Source: Candidatus Krumholzibacteriota bacterium (lineage in GTDB: Bacteria > Krumholzibacteriota > Krumholzibacteriia > JAJRXK01). From it: a stretch of 64,000 nt of DNA. The stretch is from NCBI GenBank assembly GCA_963764625.1, contig CAVXTH010000005.1:256001-320000 (forward strand), given 5' to 3'. A model generated the notes under the pieces. It ran no database searches and was not told where the DNA came from. It worked only from the letters and a program-made list of their open reading frames with translations. Positions 6,163 to 49,506 of the stretch are shown here, one piece after another (position 1 is the first letter of the stretch; every line of letters starts with the position of its first letter). The translations under genes and the position numbers were made by a program.

Positions 6163-7095
6163 TCAGGCCAAGGCGCCGCGCTTTCCCCGCTTACGATCGG
6201 ATGAGCGCCACCGATACCACAGAATTACCAGTGGGCTCGCCACGTAGATCGAGGAATAGGTACCCACGACCACCCCGACCGTCAAGGCGAACGCGAAATC
6301 GTGGATCACCGCGCCGCCGATCAGGTACAGAATGAAGGCCACGAAGACTGTGGTCAAAGAAGTGATGATCGTGCGACTGAGAGTCTCGTTGATGCTGCGA
6401 TTGACCACCTCTTCGTAGCTCTCCTTGCGCCGCAGCCGCATGTTTTCGCGAATACGGTCGAAGACGACGATGGTGTCGTTCAGGGAGTACCCGATGATGG
6501 TCAAGAACGCGGCTACGATACTCAGACTGATCTCCTTGTTCATCAACGAGAAGAGTCCGAGAGTGATCAGGACATCGTGCACCAAGGTGAGCACCGCTGC
6601 CAAGCCGAAGTGGAACACGAAGCGGAAGGTGATGTAGATCACGATGAGAATCAGGGATACGAAGATGGCATTAGTGGCGCCCTTGCGCAGCTCCTCCCCG
6701 ATCTTCGGTCCCACCGTCTCCTCGCGGCGAAGCTCGACCTTGTTGTCGGGAAGAGCTTTCGCGAGGACTCCCTGCACCGTCTGGTGATCTCCGGTCACGG
6801 CCTGCGCATCATCCAACTTGTCCACGTAGATGAGAACCTCCTCCGGACCGCCGAAGGTCGTCACCTGAGACACCTTGATCCCGCTGGCCTGGAGCGCGCT
6901 GCGAACCTGGGACACCTGCGGAGCCGGCGTGATGCGGACCTCGACGATGGAGCCGCCCCGGAAGTCGATGGACAGAAGGGGCCCGTGCTTCACGATCAAG
7001 GAGACGACACCCGCCAGGATCAGCGCGAGGGAGATTGCGGCTGCAATCTTCTTCTTCCCCAAGAAATCGATGTGCTTATTGGTCAAAAACTGCAT
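6163..7095 (-). CDS. secF: Protein translocase subunit SecF
   Basis: IDFRGGS, VGPKIGEEL and GYSLNDTIVVFDRIREN motifs. Confidence 0.98.
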   Translation of the reverse strand: MQFLTNKHIDFLGKKKIAAAISLALILAGVVSLIVKHGPLLSIDFRGGSIVEVRITPAPQVSQVRSALQASGIKVSQVTTFGGPEEVLIYVDKLDDAQAVTGDHQTVQGVLAKALPDNKVELRREETVGPKIGEELRKGATNAIFVSLILIVIYITFRFVFHFGLAAVLTLVHDVLITLGLFSLMNKEISLSIVAAFLTIIGYSLNDTIVVFDRIRENMRLRRKESYEEVVNRSINETLSRTIITSLTTVFVAFILYLIGGAVIHDFAFALTVGVVVGTYSSIYVASPLVILWYRWRSSDRKRGKRGALA

Positions 7096-23139: not shown

Positions 23140-26100
23140 TCACTCGCGACCAGCCAGATGAGCCCTGGGGCTCGTCTTCGCGGTCGATTGAGATCCCACT
23201 TCGGCCAGCTTCTCCAGCACGACCAGGGAAGCCACCAGAGAGTCTTCCCGCGACGCCTCGACGGTCATTTCCAGTCGATCCACGGCGTTGAACGCCAGTC
23301 GCGGCATTTGGGTTCCGGCCAAGTTCGTTAGAATAGAGGCGTTCGGCCTGCTAGCGCCACCAAAAAGCATGCGCACGCCTCGCCGCACGCGCCGGATGTC
23401 TTCGACCCCGGCGCGCAGAGCCCGGAGCTTGATACGCGTGATATCCAGCAGATTCTGGGTCGGATCGGGCGGAGGGCCAAATCGGTCGCGCAACTCCTCG
23501 GCCAGATGATCCAGCGCCTCCTCGTCGACCACGCGGCCCAGATCGCGGTACCAGCGGATTCTCTCCTCGGGTTCGGGCAGATACTCGTCCGGCAGATACG
23601 CACCCACTTGCAGTTCGACTTTGATGTCGTGGAGACGGGGCAGACCCTCGCCCTTGAGTTCCAGGATCTCCTCTTCGAGGAGTTTGCAGTAGAGATCGAA
23701 GCCAATACTGGCGATGTGACCGTGCTGTGCTTCGCCCAGGATGTTGCCCGCTCCCCGAATCTCCAGATCACGCATCGCGATTCGATAACCACTACCCAGA
23801 TCGGTGTATTCCTGGATGGCGGCCAGCCGCTTGCGCGCGTCCGGAGCCAGGGTGGTTCCCGACGGGGTCATGAGATGCGCGTAGGCCAAGTGGCGGCTGC
23901 GTCCCACCCGTCCTCGCAGCTGATAGAGTTGACTCAGCCCGAGTCGATCGGCTCGATCGATGAGGATCGTATTGACGTTGGGCATGTCCAGGCCGCTCTC
24001 GATGATCATCGTGGTTACGAGGACGTCGTACTTGCGCGCCAGGAAGTCGCGCATGATCTGTTCGAGCTGCGCCTCTTTCATCTGGCCGTGCGCAATCGCG
24101 ATTCGCGCGTGGGGAACGATTCTTCCCACGACCTCCGCCATGGCGTCGATGGTCTCGACCCGATTGTGCACGAAGAACACCTGACCACCGCGGTGCATTT
24201 CCCTGAGGATGGCCTCCTCGATGATGTCCTCCCGATACGGCACGACTTCGGTGTGAATGGGCAGACGATCGCGCGGAGGAGTCGCAATGATGGACATGTC
24301 GCGAGCTCCCATGAGTGAGAGGTAGAGAGTGCGCGGAATGGGAGTCGCCGAGAGCGCCATCACGTCCACTTGCTTGCGCATTTCCTTCAGTCGTTCCTTG
24401 TGGCGCACTCCGAATCTCTGTTCCTCATCCACCACCAGAAGGCCGAGCTTAGCGAATTTCACATCCCGGCCCAGAAGTCGATGCGTTCCCACCAGGATGT
24501 CGATCTCTCCCTTTTGCAGTCTCTGTAGGGTTTCCTTCTGTTCCTTGCGCGATTTGAAACGGCTCAGGACCTCGATACGGACCGGAAATTCGCGCATCCG
24601 TTGCGAAAAAGTCTCTCCATGCTGCTCGGCGAGAATCGTGGTGGGACAGAGCATCGCGACCTGCAGACCACCCATCACCGCCTTGAACGCGGCGCGCATG
24701 GCGACTTCGGTCTTGCCGAATCCGACGTCGCCGCACACGAGACGGTCCATGGGTCGTGGAGACTCCATGTCTTTCTTCACCGCCTCCACCGCGGTCAATT
24801 GGTCCGGAGTCTCTTCGTGTAGAAACGACGCCTCCATCTCCTGTTGCAAGTGGGTGTCCTCCCCGAAAGGGTGGCCGGGCAGGGCGCTCCGCGCCGCGTA
24901 AAGAGAGAGCAGCTCCTGCGCCATGGCACGAATCGCTTTGCGCGCCCGCTTGCGCGTACGCTCCCATTGTCCGGATCCGAGTTTGTGAAGAGTGGGTTCG
25001 CCACTCTCACCGATCTCGTATCTCTCCAGGAGCAACAATTTGTCGGTGGGAAGGTACAGGCGGTCCTTGTCCGCGTATTCCAACAAGAGAAATTCGTTCT
25101 CGACTTCTTCGACCGTGAGCTTGCGCAATCCGAGGTATCGAGCGATTCCGTGTTCGGCGTGCACCACGAAATCGCCCGAGTGAAGGGTCTTGGGATCCTT
25201 GACGCGGGCCGAGCCATGAAAACGAGAGCGACGCGTGGGTCTCTGATAGCGATCGAAGAATTCATGGTCGGTATAGATGGCGAGTTCCGCATCGGGCCAG
25301 GCAAAGCCCGCCCGCAGACTGCCAACGCATAGCCGAGGGCGCGCCAGAGTTGCTTCGGGATCGAACTCTTCGAAGAGCTCGCCCATGCGTTCGGCCTGAC
25401 CCCGGTTTCCGCAGTAGAGAAGCACCTCCAGATCCTTCTCGCGCAAGGCCGCGGTTTCCCGCAGCAGCTTCTCCACCTCGCCCTTGCCGCGCTCCTGGGC
25501 ACGCATCTTCAATTGAAGGGCCGCCTGATCCGAAGGCGGCGCGAGAGGCGCGGGAGCGCTGCCGGGGAGCACGACCTCACCCAACCATGCCCGGTCCCTC
25601 GACTGAATCTCCCGCTCCAACTCCTCGAGCGTGGCCATGAGCTCCTGGGCGGCGGGAACTGGATCGCCGTGCGCGAGACGATCGCGCCGAACTCTCCGGG
25701 TCTCGCGATCCAATTCCTCGCTTCTCTTGGCCAGATCGTCGGGAGAGACGAACACGATGGCGGCATCGGTCTTCAGGTAGGAGAGCAGCGTGGCCAGTGG
25801 GTCAAAAAATGGCGCCAGAGTCTCGATCCCATCGAAGTGAAGCCTGTCCTGCAGCTTTTCGATGAGGTGGGTTCGATCGTCCGGCGAGAACTCCTCCATC
25901 GATTCCACCCGCGCCATGGCTTGCAACAGCGTATCGTCGTTCATCACGAACGGACCGGCGGGAAGGATCATAGCGCTCTCTAGTTCCGCGATGGACCGCT
26001 GGTCGGCCGTCTCGAAGCTTCGAATACTCTCCAATTCCTCACCGAAGAACTCCAGGCGCACCGGCAGCTCTTGTCCCGGGCTAAAGACGTCGATGATCCC

Positions 26101-26671
26101 GCCGCGCACCGCCATGTCACCCGGCGCTTCCGCCAGACCGGACGGCCGATATCGCGAGGGCGGCCAGCTTCTCCTGCAGCTCGTCGGTGTTCAAGCGTTC
26201 GCCGCGGCTCAGGATCAGGCGATGACGCTGCAATTGGGCCGACGCCATCACCTTGTGCCGAAGTCCATAGATCGTGGTCACGAAGAATCCTGGCACGCCG
26301 GAATCCAGCGCCTGCAGGGCGGATTGGACGTTCGCCAGAATCTCGCGCGTGGGAGAGCGGCGGTCGAAAGGGAGGATTTCCAGTTCCGGCAGGTAGGTGA
26401 CCGGAGCCGAACTCAGGGTTTCCAGGTCGTCGCAGATCGCCTCGGCTTCCTCCAAGCCCGCCGCCACGATCAACCACTGGGCTTCGCGCCGTGAATAGAA
26501 TGCGTTCAGAAGAAGGGAGATCGCGCTGCCCCGCACTCCCGAGGCAATGCAGGTGGCGGGGGAAGATCCTCGCGACTCCTCGGTGAACCAGGATCGCAAA
26601 CCAGGAATCGAGAGGATGCGGTCGAGTGCTTCCGGGGAGAGTTTACTGGCGGGTGACTCGCCCGCGTTCAT
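23140..26671 (-). CDS. mfd: Transcription-repair coupling factor Mfd; +1 frameshift at ~26155
   Basis: AVRGGIIDVF, GDFVVHAEHGI, CGDVGFGKTEVA, DEEQRFG, QLRGRVGRS and DLEIRGAGN motifs. The N-terminus lies in ORF 26117..26953 (ATG 26671). Confidence 0.97.
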
Positions 26672-36331: not shown

Positions 36332-37969
36332 TCAGAGGAGCTTGCGGTCGCGCAGACCGAAGACCTCTTCGCGGAGGATCGAGACGGGAGGGGCCCCGGC
36401 CGAGAGAGCGCGATCGTGGTAGGACTTCAGCGAGAAGGAGTGTTTCTCGATCTCGCGCAGATCCTCCCGCAGCTTGAGGAAGAGAAGCTTTCCCAGAGTG
36501 TAGCCCAGGTACTGCGGATCGAAGCATCCCCTCTCGGTTTCCCGTTGGGCCAGCACATCGTCCATGTAGCAGTGGCCGGTGAGGAAGCGCTTCGATTCCT
36601 CGAACTTCCACGAACCGGTATGGAGACCGATGCTGCACATCAATCGCGCGCTGCGCTCCAACGCGGCATGACGCTGACAGATTCCGAACTTCAGATCCTC
36701 GTTCCGGAACGACTCCTCGAACAGGAGTTGCTCGCAGTAATGAGCCCACCCCTCCCAGAAGTGGTAGCTCACCGCGAATAGGCGAGTGGCTCGGCTCGGC
36801 GCGCGACGTACGTGCATCGCGTGGAGGAAGTGGCCCGGGATGACTTCGTGACCGGTGATCACGCGCAAGCGTGAGTCGTTGAACATCGAGATCCACCGGC
36901 TCCGGCGTGCGGCAGGCCACTCGTCCTCCGGCGGCGTGAGGTAGTACCAGGCACGCAGGGAGGAGGGCGCGAAGGGTCCGGGATCTTCGAGCGATGCGAT
37001 CGCCCAGCGCATCCAAGGTGGCGTGACTCCGATTTCGGGTCTGGCATCGCTGGGAATCGTCACCAGGTCGCGCGCCCGCACGAATTCGTGGAGCTCAGAG
37101 ACGATTTCTTCGCCGCTAGCCGACAACTCCATCGGCCACGAGACGTCCTTGGCGATGGAGTCGAGCACTTCGCGGGGGGTCGCCTTGGAGTCGTACTGGC
37201 GGCAGAGTTCCTCCAAGGAGGCTCGGTTCCGATTCAGTTCGGCCTCACCCGCTCGCAGGACCTCGTCCAGCTCGAGTTCCAATCCCTCCTGCTCGCGCAA
37301 CATTCCCTCGAAGCTTTCTCTGCCCATGGCGAACTCTTGGTGCGCGCGCGGCAGGGCCTCGCTTTCCAGGTACTCCAGGTGGTCGCTGACCGCTTTCGCC
37401 GCCTCCTTCACCGTGCCCGAGAATCCAGAGGGTAGGGGACCTTCTTCTAGCGCGGCGTGGTGAATTCCCGTCTGCAGGAAGGACTCGAGACCCCTGAACA
37501 CCGAGATCGCGGTCATGACGGCCGGGCTCGAGAGCTCCGGTTCGAGTTCCTCGCGGACCGCGGCGAGGAACGAAGGGACCTGTTTCAAATGAGTGAGAAG
37601 CGAGTGCGCGCGCTCCGCCCATGGGGCATAGTCCCAACGCAGGTAGGGCGAAGGATCGACGAGATCGGCCGCGTGCATCGGGTCGATCTCCTCCTTGCGC
37701 TGGACCGTGAGCCGCCAGACCTCGCTGCGCAGAGCATGGTGGAACAGGCGCGCGTCGAGTCCCACCGAATTGGGTCCCAGGCTCTCCAGGATTTCCTTTA
37801 GAAAGAGAAGGCGGCTGCGGCGCGCGTCTTGGCCAATCTGCGCCAGATACCCGTCGTACTGATGCAAACCCAGAGCTCTGGCCTCGTCTGGCCGGTAGAG
37901 GTGCGTTCGTTCCTCGTACCGGTCGAGGAGCGAATCCAAGCTCGGGCAGGGGTTGGAAGAAATGCGCAA
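36332..37969 (-). CDS. DUF885 family protein (putative metallopeptidase)
   Basis: HEVIPGHFLH, EGWAHYCEQL and YLGYTLGKL motifs. Confidence 0.92.
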   Translation of the reverse strand: MRISSNPCPSLDSLLDRYEERTHLYRPDEARALGLHQYDGYLAQIGQDARRSRLLFLKEILESLGPNSVGLDARLFHHALRSEVWRLTVQRKEEIDPMHAADLVDPSPYLRWDYAPWAERAHSLLTHLKQVPSFLAAVREELEPELSSPAVMTAISVFRGLESFLQTGIHHAALEEGPLPSGFSGTVKEAAKAVSDHLEYLESEALPRAHQEFAMGRESFEGMLREQEGLELELDEVLRAGEAELNRNRASLEELCRQYDSKATPREVLDSIAKDVSWPMELSASGEEIVSELHEFVRARDLVTIPSDARPEIGVTPPWMRWAIASLEDPGPFAPSSLRAWYYLTPPEDEWPAARRSRWISMFNDSRLRVITGHEVIPGHFLHAMHVRRAPSRATRLFAVSYHFWEGWAHYCEQLLFEESFRNEDLKFGICQRHAALERSARLMCSIGLHTGSWKFEESKRFLTGHCYMDDVLAQRETERGCFDPQYLGYTLGKLLFLKLREDLREIEKHSFSLKSYHDRALSAGAPPVSILREEVFGLRDRKLL

Positions 37970-38115
37970 AGTCGACCGCCTTCAAGGACTGGGACCACCC
38001 CACGAGGGCGTCATGGGGACCAAGGCTTCGTGTTCGCGCGCAAACTCGGGCGCACATCCAGAGCATTGCGCAGCTTCGCGAGCCCGGCTAGGCTCGCATC
38101 TCAAAGAGGATCCCC

Positions 38116-45153: not shown

Positions 45154-46527
45154 ATGCGCCAAAGTCTATTCGTCTTCCTGGCATTTCTCTTCTTGCTCGC
45201 GCCGAGCACGGCGTCCGCGCAGGGTTATGATGCCCGGAGCATGGCCATGGGTGGGGTGAATCTCGATCAGGGCTCTGGACGTCTGGCCCGCATCAATCCA
45301 GCGTACCGTGCCGTTCCACCGCGCGTCTCGAAGAAGACCACCTCGATTCCGGTGCCAATCGGAGTCATCCAGTTCATCAAGTACTTCCCCGAGCTCGATC
45401 CCGATAGCGAGGACTTCAGCGCCATCGGCATCATCAATTTCATCTCGAACATCCCCTGGGCCTGGGAGTTCCAGCAGCCACGCGATCCCAGCGAGGGAAT
45501 CGAGATTTGGCTGGGCCAAGACCAGCTCGCGTTCGACCTGAAGGATGCGCGGGAAATCATTCCACGTGACGGTTACACCATGGGTAGCATGAGCAGTCCG
45601 GTCGATCTCGGCTTCAACTTTGGGCTGGGGGAAAAGGCGGGGCTTTTGCACCTGAGTCTCATGCGGCCGTTTCTGCAAACTCAGATCGATTTCACGATGG
45701 ACGACAAGCTGGTGGGAATCCTCGCCGATGCTCAGCCGGTCACGCCGTCTACCGACTACACCGCGAGTGCGAATGCACTCATGCAGGCCGGATTCAGCAG
45801 TGGTCTCGCCTGGGCGGTACCCTTGCATGAAGAGGGCAACGGTGGCACCGACGGAGAGGGCGGCGGTCTCTGGTTCGGCGCGGGCTACCGGCACTATTTC
45901 GGCGGGGGCTACGTACAGCTCGACGGAGATTTGGGTCTGCGCAGCGGTGACCCCATCTTTTCCACCGCCGGCACCGACACTTTCGACGCCACCTTCAAGG
46001 CCGACTACCAGCGCGCCTGGCCCAACAGCGTGAGCAGCGTGGGCTACGGGAACGCCATCGACCTGGGAGCGGTGTGGCGCTCGGGGAGACTGGAACTCGG
46101 AGCCGGCGTGGCGGACATCTTCGCGAACCTCACCTGGAAGAACACGCAACTCGATCACTCGTATCTCGATCCGGACTTCAATGAGGTCGTCACCGAAAAC
46201 GTCGCGGAACACTTCGTGAGCACCACGGAGATTCCCGTGAGCTGGATGACCAATGCGAGCTGGTTGGGCGATTCCTATCTGCTGGCCGCGAGCGTGGTGC
46301 AGCAACCCGGCGGGCTGAGTCTTCACGGAGGGGCCGAGGTCTGGGTCAACCCCTGGCTGGCGCTTCGAGGAGGACTCTCGCGCGATCAACGCAGCCGTTT
46401 GCAGGCCGGCTGGGGAGCGGGATTCCGCATGGGCCCCTGGGGAATCGACGCCGGATTCCAGACGCACAACCTCGGCCTGACCGATGCCCGCGGCGTCTCG
46501 CTGGGCCTCGCGGTCACGCTTTACTAG
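45154..46527 (+). CDS. Outer-membrane beta-barrel (FadL/PorV/DUF5723-like)
   Basis: Signal peptide, ARSMAMGG plug motif, NPA, beta-strands and terminal Tyr. Confidence 0.8.
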   Translation: MRQSLFVFLAFLFLLAPSTASAQGYDARSMAMGGVNLDQGSGRLARINPAYRAVPPRVSKKTTSIPVPIGVIQFIKYFPELDPDSEDFSAIGIINFISNIPWAWEFQQPRDPSEGIEIWLGQDQLAFDLKDAREIIPRDGYTMGSMSSPVDLGFNFGLGEKAGLLHLSLMRPFLQTQIDFTMDDKLVGILADAQPVTPSTDYTASANALMQAGFSSGLAWAVPLHEEGNGGTDGEGGGLWFGAGYRHYFGGGYVQLDGDLGLRSGDPIFSTAGTDTFDATFKADYQRAWPNSVSSVGYGNAIDLGAVWRSGRLELGAGVADIFANLTWKNTQLDHSYLDPDFNEVVTENVAEHFVSTTEIPVSWMTNASWLGDSYLLAASVVQQPGGLSLHGGAEVWVNPWLALRGGLSRDQRSRLQAGWGAGFRMGPWGIDAGFQTHNLGLTDARGVSLGLAVTLY

Positions 46528-46538
46528 GGATGCGCGCC

Positions 46539-47138
46539 ATGAAAAAACCGATTCATCACCGTCCCAAGCTCTCGCGCGCGCTCCTCGCCTGCGCCGCCAT
46601 CCTGCTTACGGCGTGTGCCGGCGGGACCATCATTCTCAATCTCGACATTCTCAGCTTCATTCCCGAGCAGGATTTGAACACGAGTTACTCGGCAACCGTT
46701 CCGGGAACCGGAACCTGGATCCCGGTAGTGGGCCTGATTCCCCCCACCAAGATCGATCTCCTCGAGGGTTTGGGAACCGCGGCCCTCATGCAGGAAGGGA
46801 CCCTCCATCTCGAGGGTGAGTTCGACAATCAGAGTGGACAGGCCGATGTGCGGCTCGATCTCTTCCTGGGAGCCACCGCGGCTGGCGCCACCGCGAGCAT
46901 GACCCCGGTCATGAGCATCCCGGTCTCGGTGCAGGACCAGACCGTGACTCCCGTGAGCGGAAGCACCCAGCTCGACCAGGCCACCCTCGACCTCTTCAGC
47001 GGCAACGAAATCTGGCTCCGCGTGGATGTCTACGCGCGGGTGCCGGGCGGCCCCAGTCTCGTGAACCTCTCCGGCACCGCAAGTCTCACCGAGCTGAACG
47101 CACGCCTGCTCGCCAAGGAAGATCTGATCCGGCAGTAG
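46539..47138 (+). CDS. Hypothetical beta-rich lipoprotein
   Basis: Lipobox LTAC; lies immediately downstream of the barrel gene. Confidence 0.8.
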   Translation: MKKPIHHRPKLSRALLACAAILLTACAGGTIILNLDILSFIPEQDLNTSYSATVPGTGTWIPVVGLIPPTKIDLLEGLGTAALMQEGTLHLEGEFDNQSGQADVRLDLFLGATAAGATASMTPVMSIPVSVQDQTVTPVSGSTQLDQATLDLFSGNEIWLRVDVYARVPGGPSLVNLSGTASLTELNARLLAKEDLIRQ

Positions 47139-47139
47139 G

Positions 47140-47413
47140 AAGCATGAGGGGACGTGAGTCGCATCAGGATCCGCCTTCTCGGCCAAGGGGGAGGTCCCAG
47201 TCCCCCATTCGACCAGCGGAACCCCATCGAGTACGACCTAGGGCCTCACCACGCCCAGCGAGCTTCCCCAGGCGAGCTACCGGCGGCGCCCGTGTGCCAG
47301 CCTGCTCGTGACCCGATGCCGCGAACTCACATCCCCTCGGGGCTCAAGAGCCTGACATTCAAGGTTTCGTGGCTATCAAGAGAAGGCCGGGACCCTGTCT
47401 TCAGGATCCCGGC
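47140..47413 (-). ncRNA. Candidate structured non-coding RNA (~270 nt), unassigned
   Basis: Long-range stem 47338-47325 with 47159-47146, nested hairpins whose mismatches become G-U pairs only on the minus strand, a 5' hairpin at 47413-47386, and an upstream promoter-like motif. Confidence 0.55.
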
Positions 47414-47419
47414 TTCGTT

Positions 47420-47448
47420 AGTTTAGTACTTTCGAAGTCCTTTTTCCA
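47420..47448 (-). promoter_or_regulatory. Putative promoter for the ncRNA candidate
   Basis: TGGAAA (47448-47443), 17-nt spacer, TAAACT (47425-47420). Predicted +1 is near 47413. Confidence 0.4.
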
Positions 47449-47470
47449 GAGCTTCGGGGTCCCTCGCGGG

Positions 47471-47500
47471 AAAAAAGGCCCCCTGCGCTCAAAGGGATCT
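47471..47500 (-). terminator. Intrinsic terminator of the ECF/DUF4252 operon
   Basis: AGAUCCCUUUG-AGCG-CAGGGGGCC followed by U6. Confidence 0.65.
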
Positions 47501-47503
47501 CGC

Positions 47504-48139
47504 CTACTTGTCCGTGTCCTTGGCGCCCTTCAGGTCCTTGGCGTCGAGCTGCTCGAGCATGGGAAGGTCGAAGTGCTTGCCCAGCTTGCTGAGCTGCGCG
47601 AAGTCGATACTTCCCACCACGTTCACGAACACCGCTTCCAGTCCGTCGCCGTCTTCATAGTGGATTTCGCTATCCTTGTCGCCCATTCCCAGAAGCGCGA
47701 CGCCATTGAGCAGGGGCGCCCCCTTCGTTCCCCCCTTCTCGTCGAGCTTCACCATGATGTTCCAGGTCTCGCCTTCCTTCCTCACCTTCACCACTGAGTT
47801 CCAACCCTCGGCAGCCAACTTAGTTCCAATCTCTTCGAGGCTCGCCGAGAGGGCCTTCCCCTCGCTGATCGGGTAGGAGAAGACGTTGACCTGTAGGAGC
47901 TTCAGCCCCCCCAGCATCTCCGCCATCTGGGGATCGTCCTCCACCACGGCCCAACGAGCCAGGCTGAGCAAGGGCTGGGTGAGGGAGATCTCCACCACGC
48001 TCTTCCCCTGGTCGAAGGACTTGAAGCGTCCGAGATCGATGTAGCCGGGTTCGCCCGAGAGGTTGTTCTGGTTCGATCCGGCATACGCCACGGGGGCGAG
48101 AAAAACCACGATCGCCAGAGCGAGAAGACATTTACGCAT
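47504..48139 (-). CDS. DUF4252 domain-containing periplasmic protein
   Basis: Signal peptide; PGYIDL, VEISL, GLKLLQVNVF, GWNSVVKVR and FVNVVGSID..QLSKLG motifs. Confidence 0.88.
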   Translation of the reverse strand: MRKCLLALAIVVFLAPVAYAGSNQNNLSGEPGYIDLGRFKSFDQGKSVVEISLTQPLLSLARWAVVEDDPQMAEMLGGLKLLQVNVFSYPISEGKALSASLEEIGTKLAAEGWNSVVKVRKEGETWNIMVKLDEKGGTKGAPLLNGVALLGMGDKDSEIHYEDGDGLEAVFVNVVGSIDFAQLSKLGKHFDLPMLEQLDAKDLKGAKDTDK

Positions 48140-48172
48140 GACATGCTCTCCGATGGTTGTGGCGGCCATGGA

Positions 48173-48730
48173 TCAGCCGCCGTTGCTGGAATTCGTAACA
48201 CCAGGCGCGGGCGATACGCCTGAAGCTTCGAGTCCCATTCTCATGGTATCGGCAACGCGTTTACGGGTTTCGTTTCGCAGAACGCGCTCCGTCGAATGCA
48301 TGGCCATCCCCATGAGGGTCAAGGCCGTGCGAACATCCTCGGCTGCCGCACAGAGCGTCGTATCGTCGTACGCAATTTGCGCGCGATCCGTGGCTTTGAG
48401 GCGCCGGAAAATCTCTTGCAGATCCAGCTCACAGGGCGTGGACGTAGTATCGGACGGGGCGATGGCCACTCGAGTGGCTTCATCCGTGGGTAGATTGGAA
48501 GGCTCTTGGGGCGCGAGACGAAACAGCACGAAGAGAATCAAGACGAGTGCCGCGGCGGGAAGGATTACGGGCCGCAGACGCAGGAATGCCCACCACTGTC
48601 GAACGCGAGAAATCTCTCCCTGCGGCTCGGCATCGACTCTGGCCATGATGCGGTCGACCAGTTCCTCGGGACACCGAGGCGGCTCGTAGTCGCGCAGGCT
48701 TTCCTTGAAGAACTTCTCGTCGCCGTTCAC
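48173..48730 (-). CDS. Putative single-TM anti-sigma factor
   Basis: Overlaps the ECF stop (GTGA); short cytoplasmic N-terminus (CPEELVDRIMARV), one TM segment and a periplasmic tail. Confidence 0.75.
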   Translation of the reverse strand: MNGDEKFFKESLRDYEPPRCPEELVDRIMARVDAEPQGEISRVRQWWAFLRLRPVILPAAALVLILFVLFRLAPQEPSNLPTDEATRVAIAPSDTTSTPCELDLQEIFRRLKATDRAQIAYDDTTLCAAAEDVRTALTLMGMAMHSTERVLRNETRKRVADTMRMGLEASGVSPAPGVTNSSNGG

Positions 48731-49302
48731 GCCTGCGCCTCCTTGGGCTCTTCGAACATTTGCCGTACTCTCTTGCGTGCGCGATGGAGACTTACTTTCA
48801 CCGCGGAAAGCGAGAGCTCCGTCACCGAGGCGATCTCCTCGTAGCTGAACCCCTGTAGCTCTCGCAAGATGATGATCGAGCGTTGGGGTTCGTTCAATTT
48901 TTGCATCGCGCGCACGATACGACGCACCTCGCTTTGGTCCTCGATCTCGCGGGCGCCGGCCCCCTCATCGCTGAGGTCGAACGAAAGCTCTCGCCCTGAA
49001 CCCCCATCGAACTCCCGAGGCGAGCCGACGCCCAGGCTGATCTGGCTGGGGTCAGCCTGGTGACGCCGGCGAACCTTGCGCCTCCGTAGGCGGTCCAGGC
49101 AGGCATTCCGGCAGACCCTCAGCAACCACGCCGGCCGTGACTCCGCCTCGACCTCATCCCCTCTCCGCCAGAGCTTCAGAAAGACGTCCTGCACCACATC
49201 CTGCGCGTCTTCGTTCGAGTTGAGCAGATGCACCGCCAGTCCAAAGACGGCGTCCTTCTGCTCTCGCAGGAGACGGTTGAATACGGGGCGATCCATCTTC
49301 AT
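48727..49302 (-). CDS. ECF RNA polymerase sigma factor
   Basis: DAQDVVQDVFLKLW, WLLRVCRNACLD and SYEEIA...VKVSLHRARK motifs. Start is 49302 or 49296. Confidence 0.95.
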   Translation of the reverse strand: MKMDRPVFNRLLREQKDAVFGLAVHLLNSNEDAQDVVQDVFLKLWRRGDEVEAESRPAWLLRVCRNACLDRLRRRKVRRRHQADPSQISLGVGSPREFDGGSGRELSFDLSDEGAGAREIEDQSEVRRIVRAMQKLNEPQRSIIILRELQGFSYEEIASVTELSLSAVKVSLHRARKRVRQMFEEPKEAQA

Positions 49303-49317
49303 CTGCCATTCATTAAC

Positions 49318-49345
49318 TAGACGCGCCAGCCCGCAGGGGGTTACA
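49318..49345 (-). promoter_or_regulatory. ECF-type autoregulatory promoter
   Basis: TGTAAC (49345-49340), 16-nt spacer, CGTCTA (49323-49318), just upstream of the ECF start. Confidence 0.75.
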
Positions 49346-49506
49346 GCCCTGCACCCGGGGTCCGGGCTCCTCAACCATCACTTTTCCCCGGAGACTGCCT
49401 CTGGTACTATCCCTGTCCCGGACGAGAAACGATCGCAGCCACTGCGTCCGATGGGTTCTTTGCTCGGGCCCGTTCCTGCAATCCGATCTCAGGCTTACGG
49501 AAAATC

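Follow-up and report, generated by a model that had tools for sequence, protein, structure and literature searches.

Structured non-coding RNAs (ncRNAs) of more than about 200 nt that combine multi-helix junctions with invariant loops are uncommon in bacteria, and the large ncRNAs of this kind whose roles have since been found are ribozymes, ribonucleoprotein RNAs or global regulators. Among the described systems that come closest to the locus reported here, 6S RNA (ssrS; RF00013 and the family of the Flavobacteria type) is a rod with a large central bubble, and the large bacterial SRP RNA (RF01854), which is essential, carries the loop pattern of domain IV (helix 8) together with an apical tetraloop. 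The raiA motif RNA represents the orphan multi-stem structured ncRNAs that were found by comparative genomics, and the small RNAs of the MicA/RybB type are envelope-stress sRNAs driven by ECF sigma factors.

The locus lies within a stretch of 64,000 nt of DNA from Candidatus Krumholzibacteriota (hereafter the window; all positions refer to it unless another locus is named), a phylum that to our knowledge is represented only by metagenome-assembled genomes (MAGs). From our point of view it is fairly probable, judging from sequence comparison, that an intergenic gap of this window holds a stand-alone, trans-acting structured ncRNA gene on the minus strand whose family is not yet described. Like 6S RNA, the candidate would be a stand-alone gene with a sigma-70-type promoter and a core of ~200 nt closed by pairing of its 5' and 3' parts, and its 3' end could come from processing rather than from a T-run terminator; unlike 6S RNA, it forms a three-way junction with short junction strands, has no Rfam match and is absent from the corresponding site of a syntenic relative (L004). 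With the large SRP RNA it shares the length of ~270 nt, the closing helix, a long hairpin arm and two adjacent hairpins with complementary loops (CGCC/GGCG), which resemble the Alu domain. It differs from that RNA in having neither the domain IV loop pattern nor an apical tetraloop nor an Rfam match, and the absence of an essential RNA from the intact syntenic L004 locus would be unexpected, although a relocation is possible.

The orphan ncRNAs of the raiA type are similar in their multiple helices, near-invariant loops and covarying stems and in having no cis target gene adjacent, whereas the candidate belongs to another phylum, has no match in Rfam 15 and has been seen in four genomes so far. 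What links it to sRNAs of the MicA/RybB type is that it adjoins an ECF sigma/anti-sigma operon as well as outer-membrane and lipoprotein genes; however, its putative promoter is not of the type seen upstream of the neighbouring ECF sigma gene, and it has three times the length of these sRNAs and far more structure. We judge it to be a new RNA family of a familiar kind, namely an orphan structured bacterial ncRNA, represented by four genomes (three distinct sequences) of one uncultured lineage.

Genomic setting

The window consists of chromosomal DNA of ~62% G+C with housekeeping genes that include SecDF, TatD, FtsEX, SurA and Mfd, and within the genome collection its genes have their closest relatives in MAGs that bear the label Candidatus Krumholzibacteriota. 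The gap and its neighbours are arranged as follows:

45154-46527, plus strand: gene for a beta-barrel-like protein with signal peptide, convergent operon
46530-47138, plus strand: lipoprotein gene (LLTAC lipobox), last gene of the convergent operon, ending at 47138
47139-47503: intergenic gap of 365 bp between the stops of two converging operons
47504-48169, minus strand: DUF4252 protein gene, last gene of the ECF-sigma operon, ending at 47504
48173-48730, minus strand: anti-sigma-like protein gene, ECF-sigma operon
48727-49374, minus strand: ECF sigma factor gene, ECF-sigma operon

In the flanking coding frames GC3 amounts to 0.76-0.82 (0.79 and 0.82 for the lipoprotein and DUF4252 genes, respectively) compared with 0.62-0.65 in the overlapping opposite-strand ORFs. 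This contrast fixes the coding strands, and the two operons are therefore truly convergent. The original prediction, which had described a 365-bp gap without a credible ORF between convergent operons, is thus confirmed in its boundaries and strands, and the gap holds no conserved reading frame: which frames are open changes from species to species, and the core carries 1-nt indels.

Homologues and synteny

An alignment of the DUF4252 proteins served as an anchor, and a search of the genome collection with it gave 60 loci. The comparison with related MAGs that had been suggested was made with the gap sequence by blastn and nhmmer, which found homologues in 3 of the 60 loci (L001, L002 and L003), all of them from Krumholzibacteriota-type MAGs. 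A covariance model (R1) built from the RNA core and run over the window and the 60 loci (737 kb) recovered the same four sequences (window, L001, L002 and L003) at 163-239 bits, with one copy per source. Beyond these four members, the best score of R1 in the same 737 kb was 16.6 bits in L008, and nothing better appeared when the Krumholzibacteriota-like loci L004-L008 were searched with the filters off. The L008 match was rejected, as it lies within long ORFs and folds no better than shuffled sequences (z -0.87). The sequence occurs once in the 64-kb window (blastn), each of the three loci (12.6 kb each) likewise contains a single copy, and the syntenic position is the same throughout. A distant blastn search returned no match in plasmid and phage collections.

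The position of the RNA is syntenic in four genomes, and the flanking proteins have identities to their window counterparts of 77-88% for L001 and L002, compared with 50-76% for L003 and L004. All four copies adjoin the 3' end of the orthologue of the lipoprotein gene; the other neighbour differs in L003. There the RNA is divergent from its upstream neighbour gene, and read-through from an upstream operon therefore cannot explain the L003 copy. L004, which is fully syntenic, has a gap of 145 nt without a homologue at the RNA site, so that the RNA must be dispensable or relocated in that lineage.

Conservation and strand

Identity across the 206-nt core is 88.3% between the window and L001 and 68.4% between the window and L003, compared with 59-67% and 38-51%, respectively, at the third codon positions of the four flanking genes. 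As measured against these positions, the conservation of the core is far above the neutral level. L001 and L002 do not differ at any of 209 positions (6812-7020), with flanks that are ~95% identical.

The consensus fold of the sense strand has an energy of -98.35 kcal/mol, to which covariation contributes -3.5; for the antisense strand the two values are -70.88 kcal/mol and -0.12. In the window, L001 and L003, respectively, the G-U pairs of the helices number 12, 10 and 9 and the A-C pairs 0, 0 and 1, an asymmetry that places the RNA on the minus strand of the window. It had been proposed that most helix imperfections are G-U pairs on this strand, which agrees with 12 G-U and 0 A-C pairs among the 69 pairs of the window. 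Conservation above the neutral level combined with compensatory changes on one strand, which we take as the mark of a stand-alone structured ncRNA, was hence found with three distinct sequences. Selection acts here at the level of RNA, on one strand and on a common architecture preceded by a conserved promoter-like block.

Secondary structure and covariation

The minus strand of 47140-47448 folds with a minimum free energy (MFE) of -146.1 kcal/mol (z -4.78), and 0 of 100 dinucleotide shuffles were as good; the predicted fold is thus beyond chance. The plus strand of the same segment reaches -129.8 kcal/mol (z -4.0). RNAalifold on the four cores yields a three-way junction with a closing helix (P1), an arm with two hairpins (P2) and a further arm (P3), and the same architecture emerged when the MFE fold was computed for the core of the window, for L001 and for the core of L003 one by one; taken by itself, the L003 core is only modestly more stable than its shuffles (z -1.67). 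In the window the elements are:

47321-47338, minus strand: 5' strand of P1, pairing with 47162-47146 (17 pairs, two of them compensatory, 96% of cells paired)
47225-47318, minus strand: P2 domain, stem 47318-47312 with 47231-47225 (two compensatory pairs)
47307-47274, minus strand: hairpin P2a with the invariant 11-nt loop ACACGGGCGCC at 47295-47285 (three compensatory pairs)
47273-47236, minus strand: hairpin P2b with the invariant GGCG loop at 47255-47252 (one compensatory pair, in the outer part of P2b)
47167-47223, minus strand: arm P3, a long hairpin that contains a 5-nt bulge and ends in the 8-nt apical loop CUGGGACC at 47200-47193
47146-47162, minus strand: 3' strand of P1, the likely 3' boundary of the structured RNA

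The proposed test for covariation had a positive outcome, in that both sides changed in a compensatory manner in 11 of the 69 pairs and 94.7% of the 207 cells held standard pairs, although the statistics are weak, with three distinct sequences and a tested structure that was derived from these same sequences and is hence favoured. Six slid registers, which served as controls, gave 0-2 compensatory pairs, and 0 of 500 shuffles reached the observed values. Helices 6 and 7 of P3 contribute three compensatory pairs in all, with 97-100% of their cells paired, and the P3 loop changes at one base in L003. The P2 arm is probably better supported than the counts of compensatory pairs show, because the separate fold of L003 pairs GCUUCGGGCU with GGUCCGAAGU, which sit one column off the alignment. 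The CGCC of the P2a loop is complementary to the GGCG of the P2b loop, both loops being invariant, and a loop-loop contact between P2a and P2b is thus conceivable from the sequences.

Of the layout that had been drawn from the window by itself, the closing helix GAGGGGAUGUGAGU/ACUCACGUCCCCUC was recovered, with 47338-47325 pairing to 47159-47146. Its supposed extension GCAUCGGG/CCUGAUGC is absent from the MFE fold and not conserved; instead, CAUCGGG pairs with CUCGAUG to form the stem of P2 (47318-47312/47231-47225), which is kept in L001 and L003. The 7-bp stem CUUGAUA/UGUCAGG had to be given up as well, as it falls into the variable linker with a 7-nt indel in L001 and L002. Hairpins do sit inside the closing helix as suggested, but three were found where two had been claimed, two of them on the common stem P2 and the third being P3. 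The window copy has a CUGAUG where P3 meets P1 that recalls a hammerhead motif; it was dismissed, since it is not conserved in L001 or L003.

Putative promoter, 5' hairpin and 3' end

The core (89% identical to L001) is preceded by four elements:

47469-47496, minus strand: intrinsic terminator of the upstream operon (hairpin and T6), stem 47496-47479 and tail CCTTTTTTCC; identity of the region to L001 42%
47414-47450, minus strand: promoter-like block, TGGAAA (47448-47443), 17-nt spacer and TAAACT (47425-47420); identity to L001 86% and to L003 76%, with 41-42% just upstream
47386-47413, minus strand: 5'-terminal hairpin of 12 bp with nine G-C pairs, starting at the predicted +1; identity to L001 81%
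47339-47385, minus strand: variable linker, the last four bases (CCCC) being invariant; identity to L001 64%

A hairpin followed by a T6 run had been assigned to the upstream gene as its terminator, and a pattern scan indeed found it at 47496-47469, where its sequence would insulate the RNA gene from the ECF-sigma/anti-sigma/DUF4252 operon. The identity of an intrinsic terminator fits this upstream element and not the conserved core.

The block CTGGAAAAAG.AC...AGTACTAA.CT occurs in all four copies with the same 17-nt spacing and is AT-rich in a G+C-rich genome, and in each copy the first hairpin begins 5-7 nt past the -10-like hexamer. The sequence and spacing of the postulated promoter TGGAAA-N17-TAAACT, with a predicted +1 near 47413, can hence be found as described, but it agrees with the sigma-70 consensus at only 8 of 12 positions, which is below the cut-off of the scanner (9/12), and it was therefore not called. 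In other intergenic regions of the window, TTGACA is followed after N16 and N18 by TAnnnT, and from these clear motifs it appears that canonical promoters are in use. A promoter of the RNA that depends on the ECF sigma factor was rejected, as the block does not resemble the motif upstream of the sigma gene, which reads TGTAAC-N16-CGTC in the window and is of the GTAACT type in L001-L004.

The 12-bp 5' hairpin at 47413-47386 was confirmed by pattern scan. Between the window and L001 it shows two compensatory changes (G-C to C-G and C-G to U-A), in L002 it contains one A/G mismatch, and L003 has a much longer hairpin at this place. The 5' extension of the RNA in L003 (8457-8590, plus strand) further contains two near-identical direct repeats of ~20 nt (UCGAAAUGCC..GUUCUCC), which are arranged in and after the long hairpin, where the other copies have only the 28-nt hairpin.

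At the other end of the RNA, the window and L001 continue after P1 with a pyrimidine-rich tail that has no T run, and in the window, L001 and L002 the distance from P1 to the convergent stop codon is 7 nt. In L003 a UUUU-containing tail and a further hairpin come after P1, with ~85 nt to the convergent stop codon. The pattern scan called no intrinsic terminator after P1 in the window, L001 or L003, and in the window no terminator-like site on the minus strand from P1 down to 46800. Since the window and L001 have no terminator after P1, transcription may continue in antisense direction into the gene that converges on it.

Relation to known RNA families

A search of the whole window against Rfam 15 (4227 families) gave 0 matches at gathering score. 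Three focused searches in E-value mode (E up to 10) gave chance-level matches only, none of which was common to the window and L003 and none of which belonged to a 6S or SRP family. The best of them was ROSE_3 with 17.4 bits (threshold 43), which covers only the 5' hairpin; others were miRNA precursors on the 5' hairpin of L003 and RsmV at 6.9 bits. The Rfam comparison that had been suggested as a check thus lends no support to the identity of a known RNA. A scan of the window for tRNA and tmRNA found 0 genes. Full-text searches gave no literature on ncRNA in Krumholzibacteriota and no description of such an RNA, and among the titles listed for DUF4252 none is about an RNA.

The loose likeness to SRP or 6S RNA noted at the outset, which for SRP RNA had already been doubted, is not supported, neither by Rfam nor by the fold. 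The strands at the junction measure 1-7 nt and hence leave no 6S-type central bubble, and the 6S rod is at odds with the three-way junction in the consensus and in three separate MFE folds. The domain IV (helix 8) pattern of SRP RNA is absent from P3, which has one 5-nt bulge of variable sequence and an 8-nt apical loop. A riboswitch or other cis leader was rejected as well, since there is no downstream gene on the strand of the RNA: what comes next in its direction is a convergent plus-strand gene, reached at its 3' end, and the same holds for L001-L003.

Proposed function and alternative explanations

For the stand-alone ncRNA gene that we favour, the following course can be imagined. A housekeeping-type promoter, TGGAAA-N17-TAAACT, would start transcription at ~47413, and the first 28 nt would fold at once into a stable 5'-terminal hairpin; in bacterial RNA decay, a hairpin at the 5' terminus protects from 5'-end-dependent degradation. 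After a variable linker of ~47 nt, the conserved core of ~193 nt (47338-47146) would fold into the three-way junction, in which P1 closes the structure, P2 bears two hairpins and P3 is a long hairpin. The loops might then represent contact surfaces for a protein or another ligand, perhaps also for each other, and the RNA would act in trans rather than on a neighbouring gene. We infer transcription, start site and stability of the RNA from sequence features, and the original prediction of a minus-strand ncRNA, possibly of a new class, was otherwise supported by every comparative test made. Given that the stems change by compensation and the loops are near-invariant, we further infer from this pattern of conservation that the RNA works through its folded shape. 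Any proposal for its binding partner or biological role would be speculative.

Two other readings would tie the RNA to its neighbours. It could be a base-pairing regulator, acting either as a cis-antisense RNA that extends past P1 and lowers the expression of the convergent operon (45154-47138) or as a trans-acting sRNA with a seed in one of its loops. The short distance of 7 nt between the end of P1 and the convergent stop codon in three copies, the lack of a terminator-like site on the minus strand down to 46800, the association with the 3' end of the same gene in all four copies while the other neighbour differs in L003, and the envelope-related nature of the neighbours (ECF sigma operon, beta-barrel-like protein and lipoprotein) would all fit such a role. 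We nevertheless regard it as unlikely, because a covarying three-way junction of 193 nt is far more elaborate than an antisense RNA or an sRNA with a seed would require, because P1 and the convergent stop lie ~85 nt apart in L003 with another hairpin in between, and because L004 keeps the operon without the RNA. When the window was searched for targets of five conserved words from single-stranded parts of the RNA, the search pointed to a site at 37987-37997 (minus strand), 28 nt upstream of the DUF885 gene 36332-37969, which is complementary to the conserved P3 loop region at 10 of 11 positions; this is the sole loop complement near a gene start, and about one would be expected by chance in 128 kb. 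Considerably less probable still is a cis-acting 3' element, that is, a large insulator, terminator or mRNA stabiliser common to both convergent operons. The site exactly between two converging gene ends, the G+C-rich fold that is stable on both strands (z -4.8 and -4.0) and the 5' hairpin of the window, which with its CTTCTCTT tail was flagged as terminator-like, are in line with it. However, this terminator-like call was not repeated in L001 or L003 (0 sites), the upstream operon already has its own hairpin and T6, and no upstream gene reads into the L003 copy. Moreover, the excess of G-U over A-C pairs speaks for selection on one strand only, and the loops and the AT-rich promoter-like block are conserved, neither of which a terminator needs.

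That the RNA is a 6S or large SRP RNA that has diverged beyond the reach of the Rfam models can hardly be maintained, even though the size (~270 nt with a core of ~200 nt), the helix that closes the two ends, the stand-alone promoter and the neighbouring hairpins with complementary loops, reminiscent of the Alu domain of large SRP RNA, would suit it. Against it stand the Rfam searches without a 6S or SRP family among their matches, the short junction strands without a 6S-type bubble, the 8-nt loop of P3 in place of a tetraloop with SRP domain IV loops and the missing copy at the syntenic site of L004. The lowest probability of all, close to negligible, we assign to a feature other than RNA, which could be a gene for a small protein, a pseudogene in decay or a mobile repeat (MITE/REP). 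The gap does contain frames of 59-92 codons that are free of stops, but they are not kept between species and are broken by 1-nt indels, the GC content by codon position of the 90-codon ORF is atypical (0.67/0.55/0.69), and the gap ORF has no match in Pfam or NCBIfam, for which reasons a small ORF was rejected. A mobile repeat, in turn, would fit poorly with a sequence that occurs only once in the 64 kb of the window and once per locus, has a syntenic position in four genomes and lacks a match in the plasmid and phage collections.

A bolder version of the trans-acting ncRNA, which we consider doubtful, is that of a founding member of a new class of mid-sized, elaborately folded bacterial RNAs with a biochemical job of its own, for example as a subunit of a ribonucleoprotein, a ligand sensor acting in trans or a ribozyme. 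If this were true, the near-invariant loops would form a tertiary core that includes the P2a-P2b contact, and the RNA would be confined to a lineage within Krumholzibacteriota, a phylum that is uncultured. The candidate provides a defined sequence, strand, boundaries and secondary structure for searching, for the mapping of metatranscriptomes and for synthesis and probing. For now, its value is limited by the number of four genomes and the absence in one syntenic relative.

Observations on neighbouring genes

Some further features of the surrounding genes came to light. In L003 (6692-~8262, minus strand) and L004 (6680-8254, minus strand), a gene for a RuBisCO large-chain-like domain with a C-terminal cupin sits between the DUF4252 gene and the RNA site on the opposite strand; it is absent from the neighbourhood of the RNA in the window, L001 and L002. 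Within the 145-nt gap of L004 (8263-8292, plus strand), the motif TGTAAC-N15-CGTC is similar to the ECF-type promoter that the sigma operon nearby has, and its direction is towards the convergent lipoprotein gene, at the 3' end of that gene; its presence may be due to chance.

In the window itself, the ECF-type promoter-like motif TGTAAC-N16-CGTC (49345-49320, minus strand) falls inside the longest ORF of the sigma gene, which has a TTG start at 49374. For this reason the true start of the gene is probably the in-frame ATG at 49302, with which the similarity to L003 from residue 25 onwards agrees. Lastly, the Mfd-like (TRCF) ORF at 23140-26115 (minus strand) opens with a UvrB-interaction domain at residue 2, and its start is overlapped by a 165-codon ORF in another frame (25980-26477, minus strand) without a Pfam match; the arrangement could stem from a frameshift or an error of assembly, or the N-terminus could be an unusual one.
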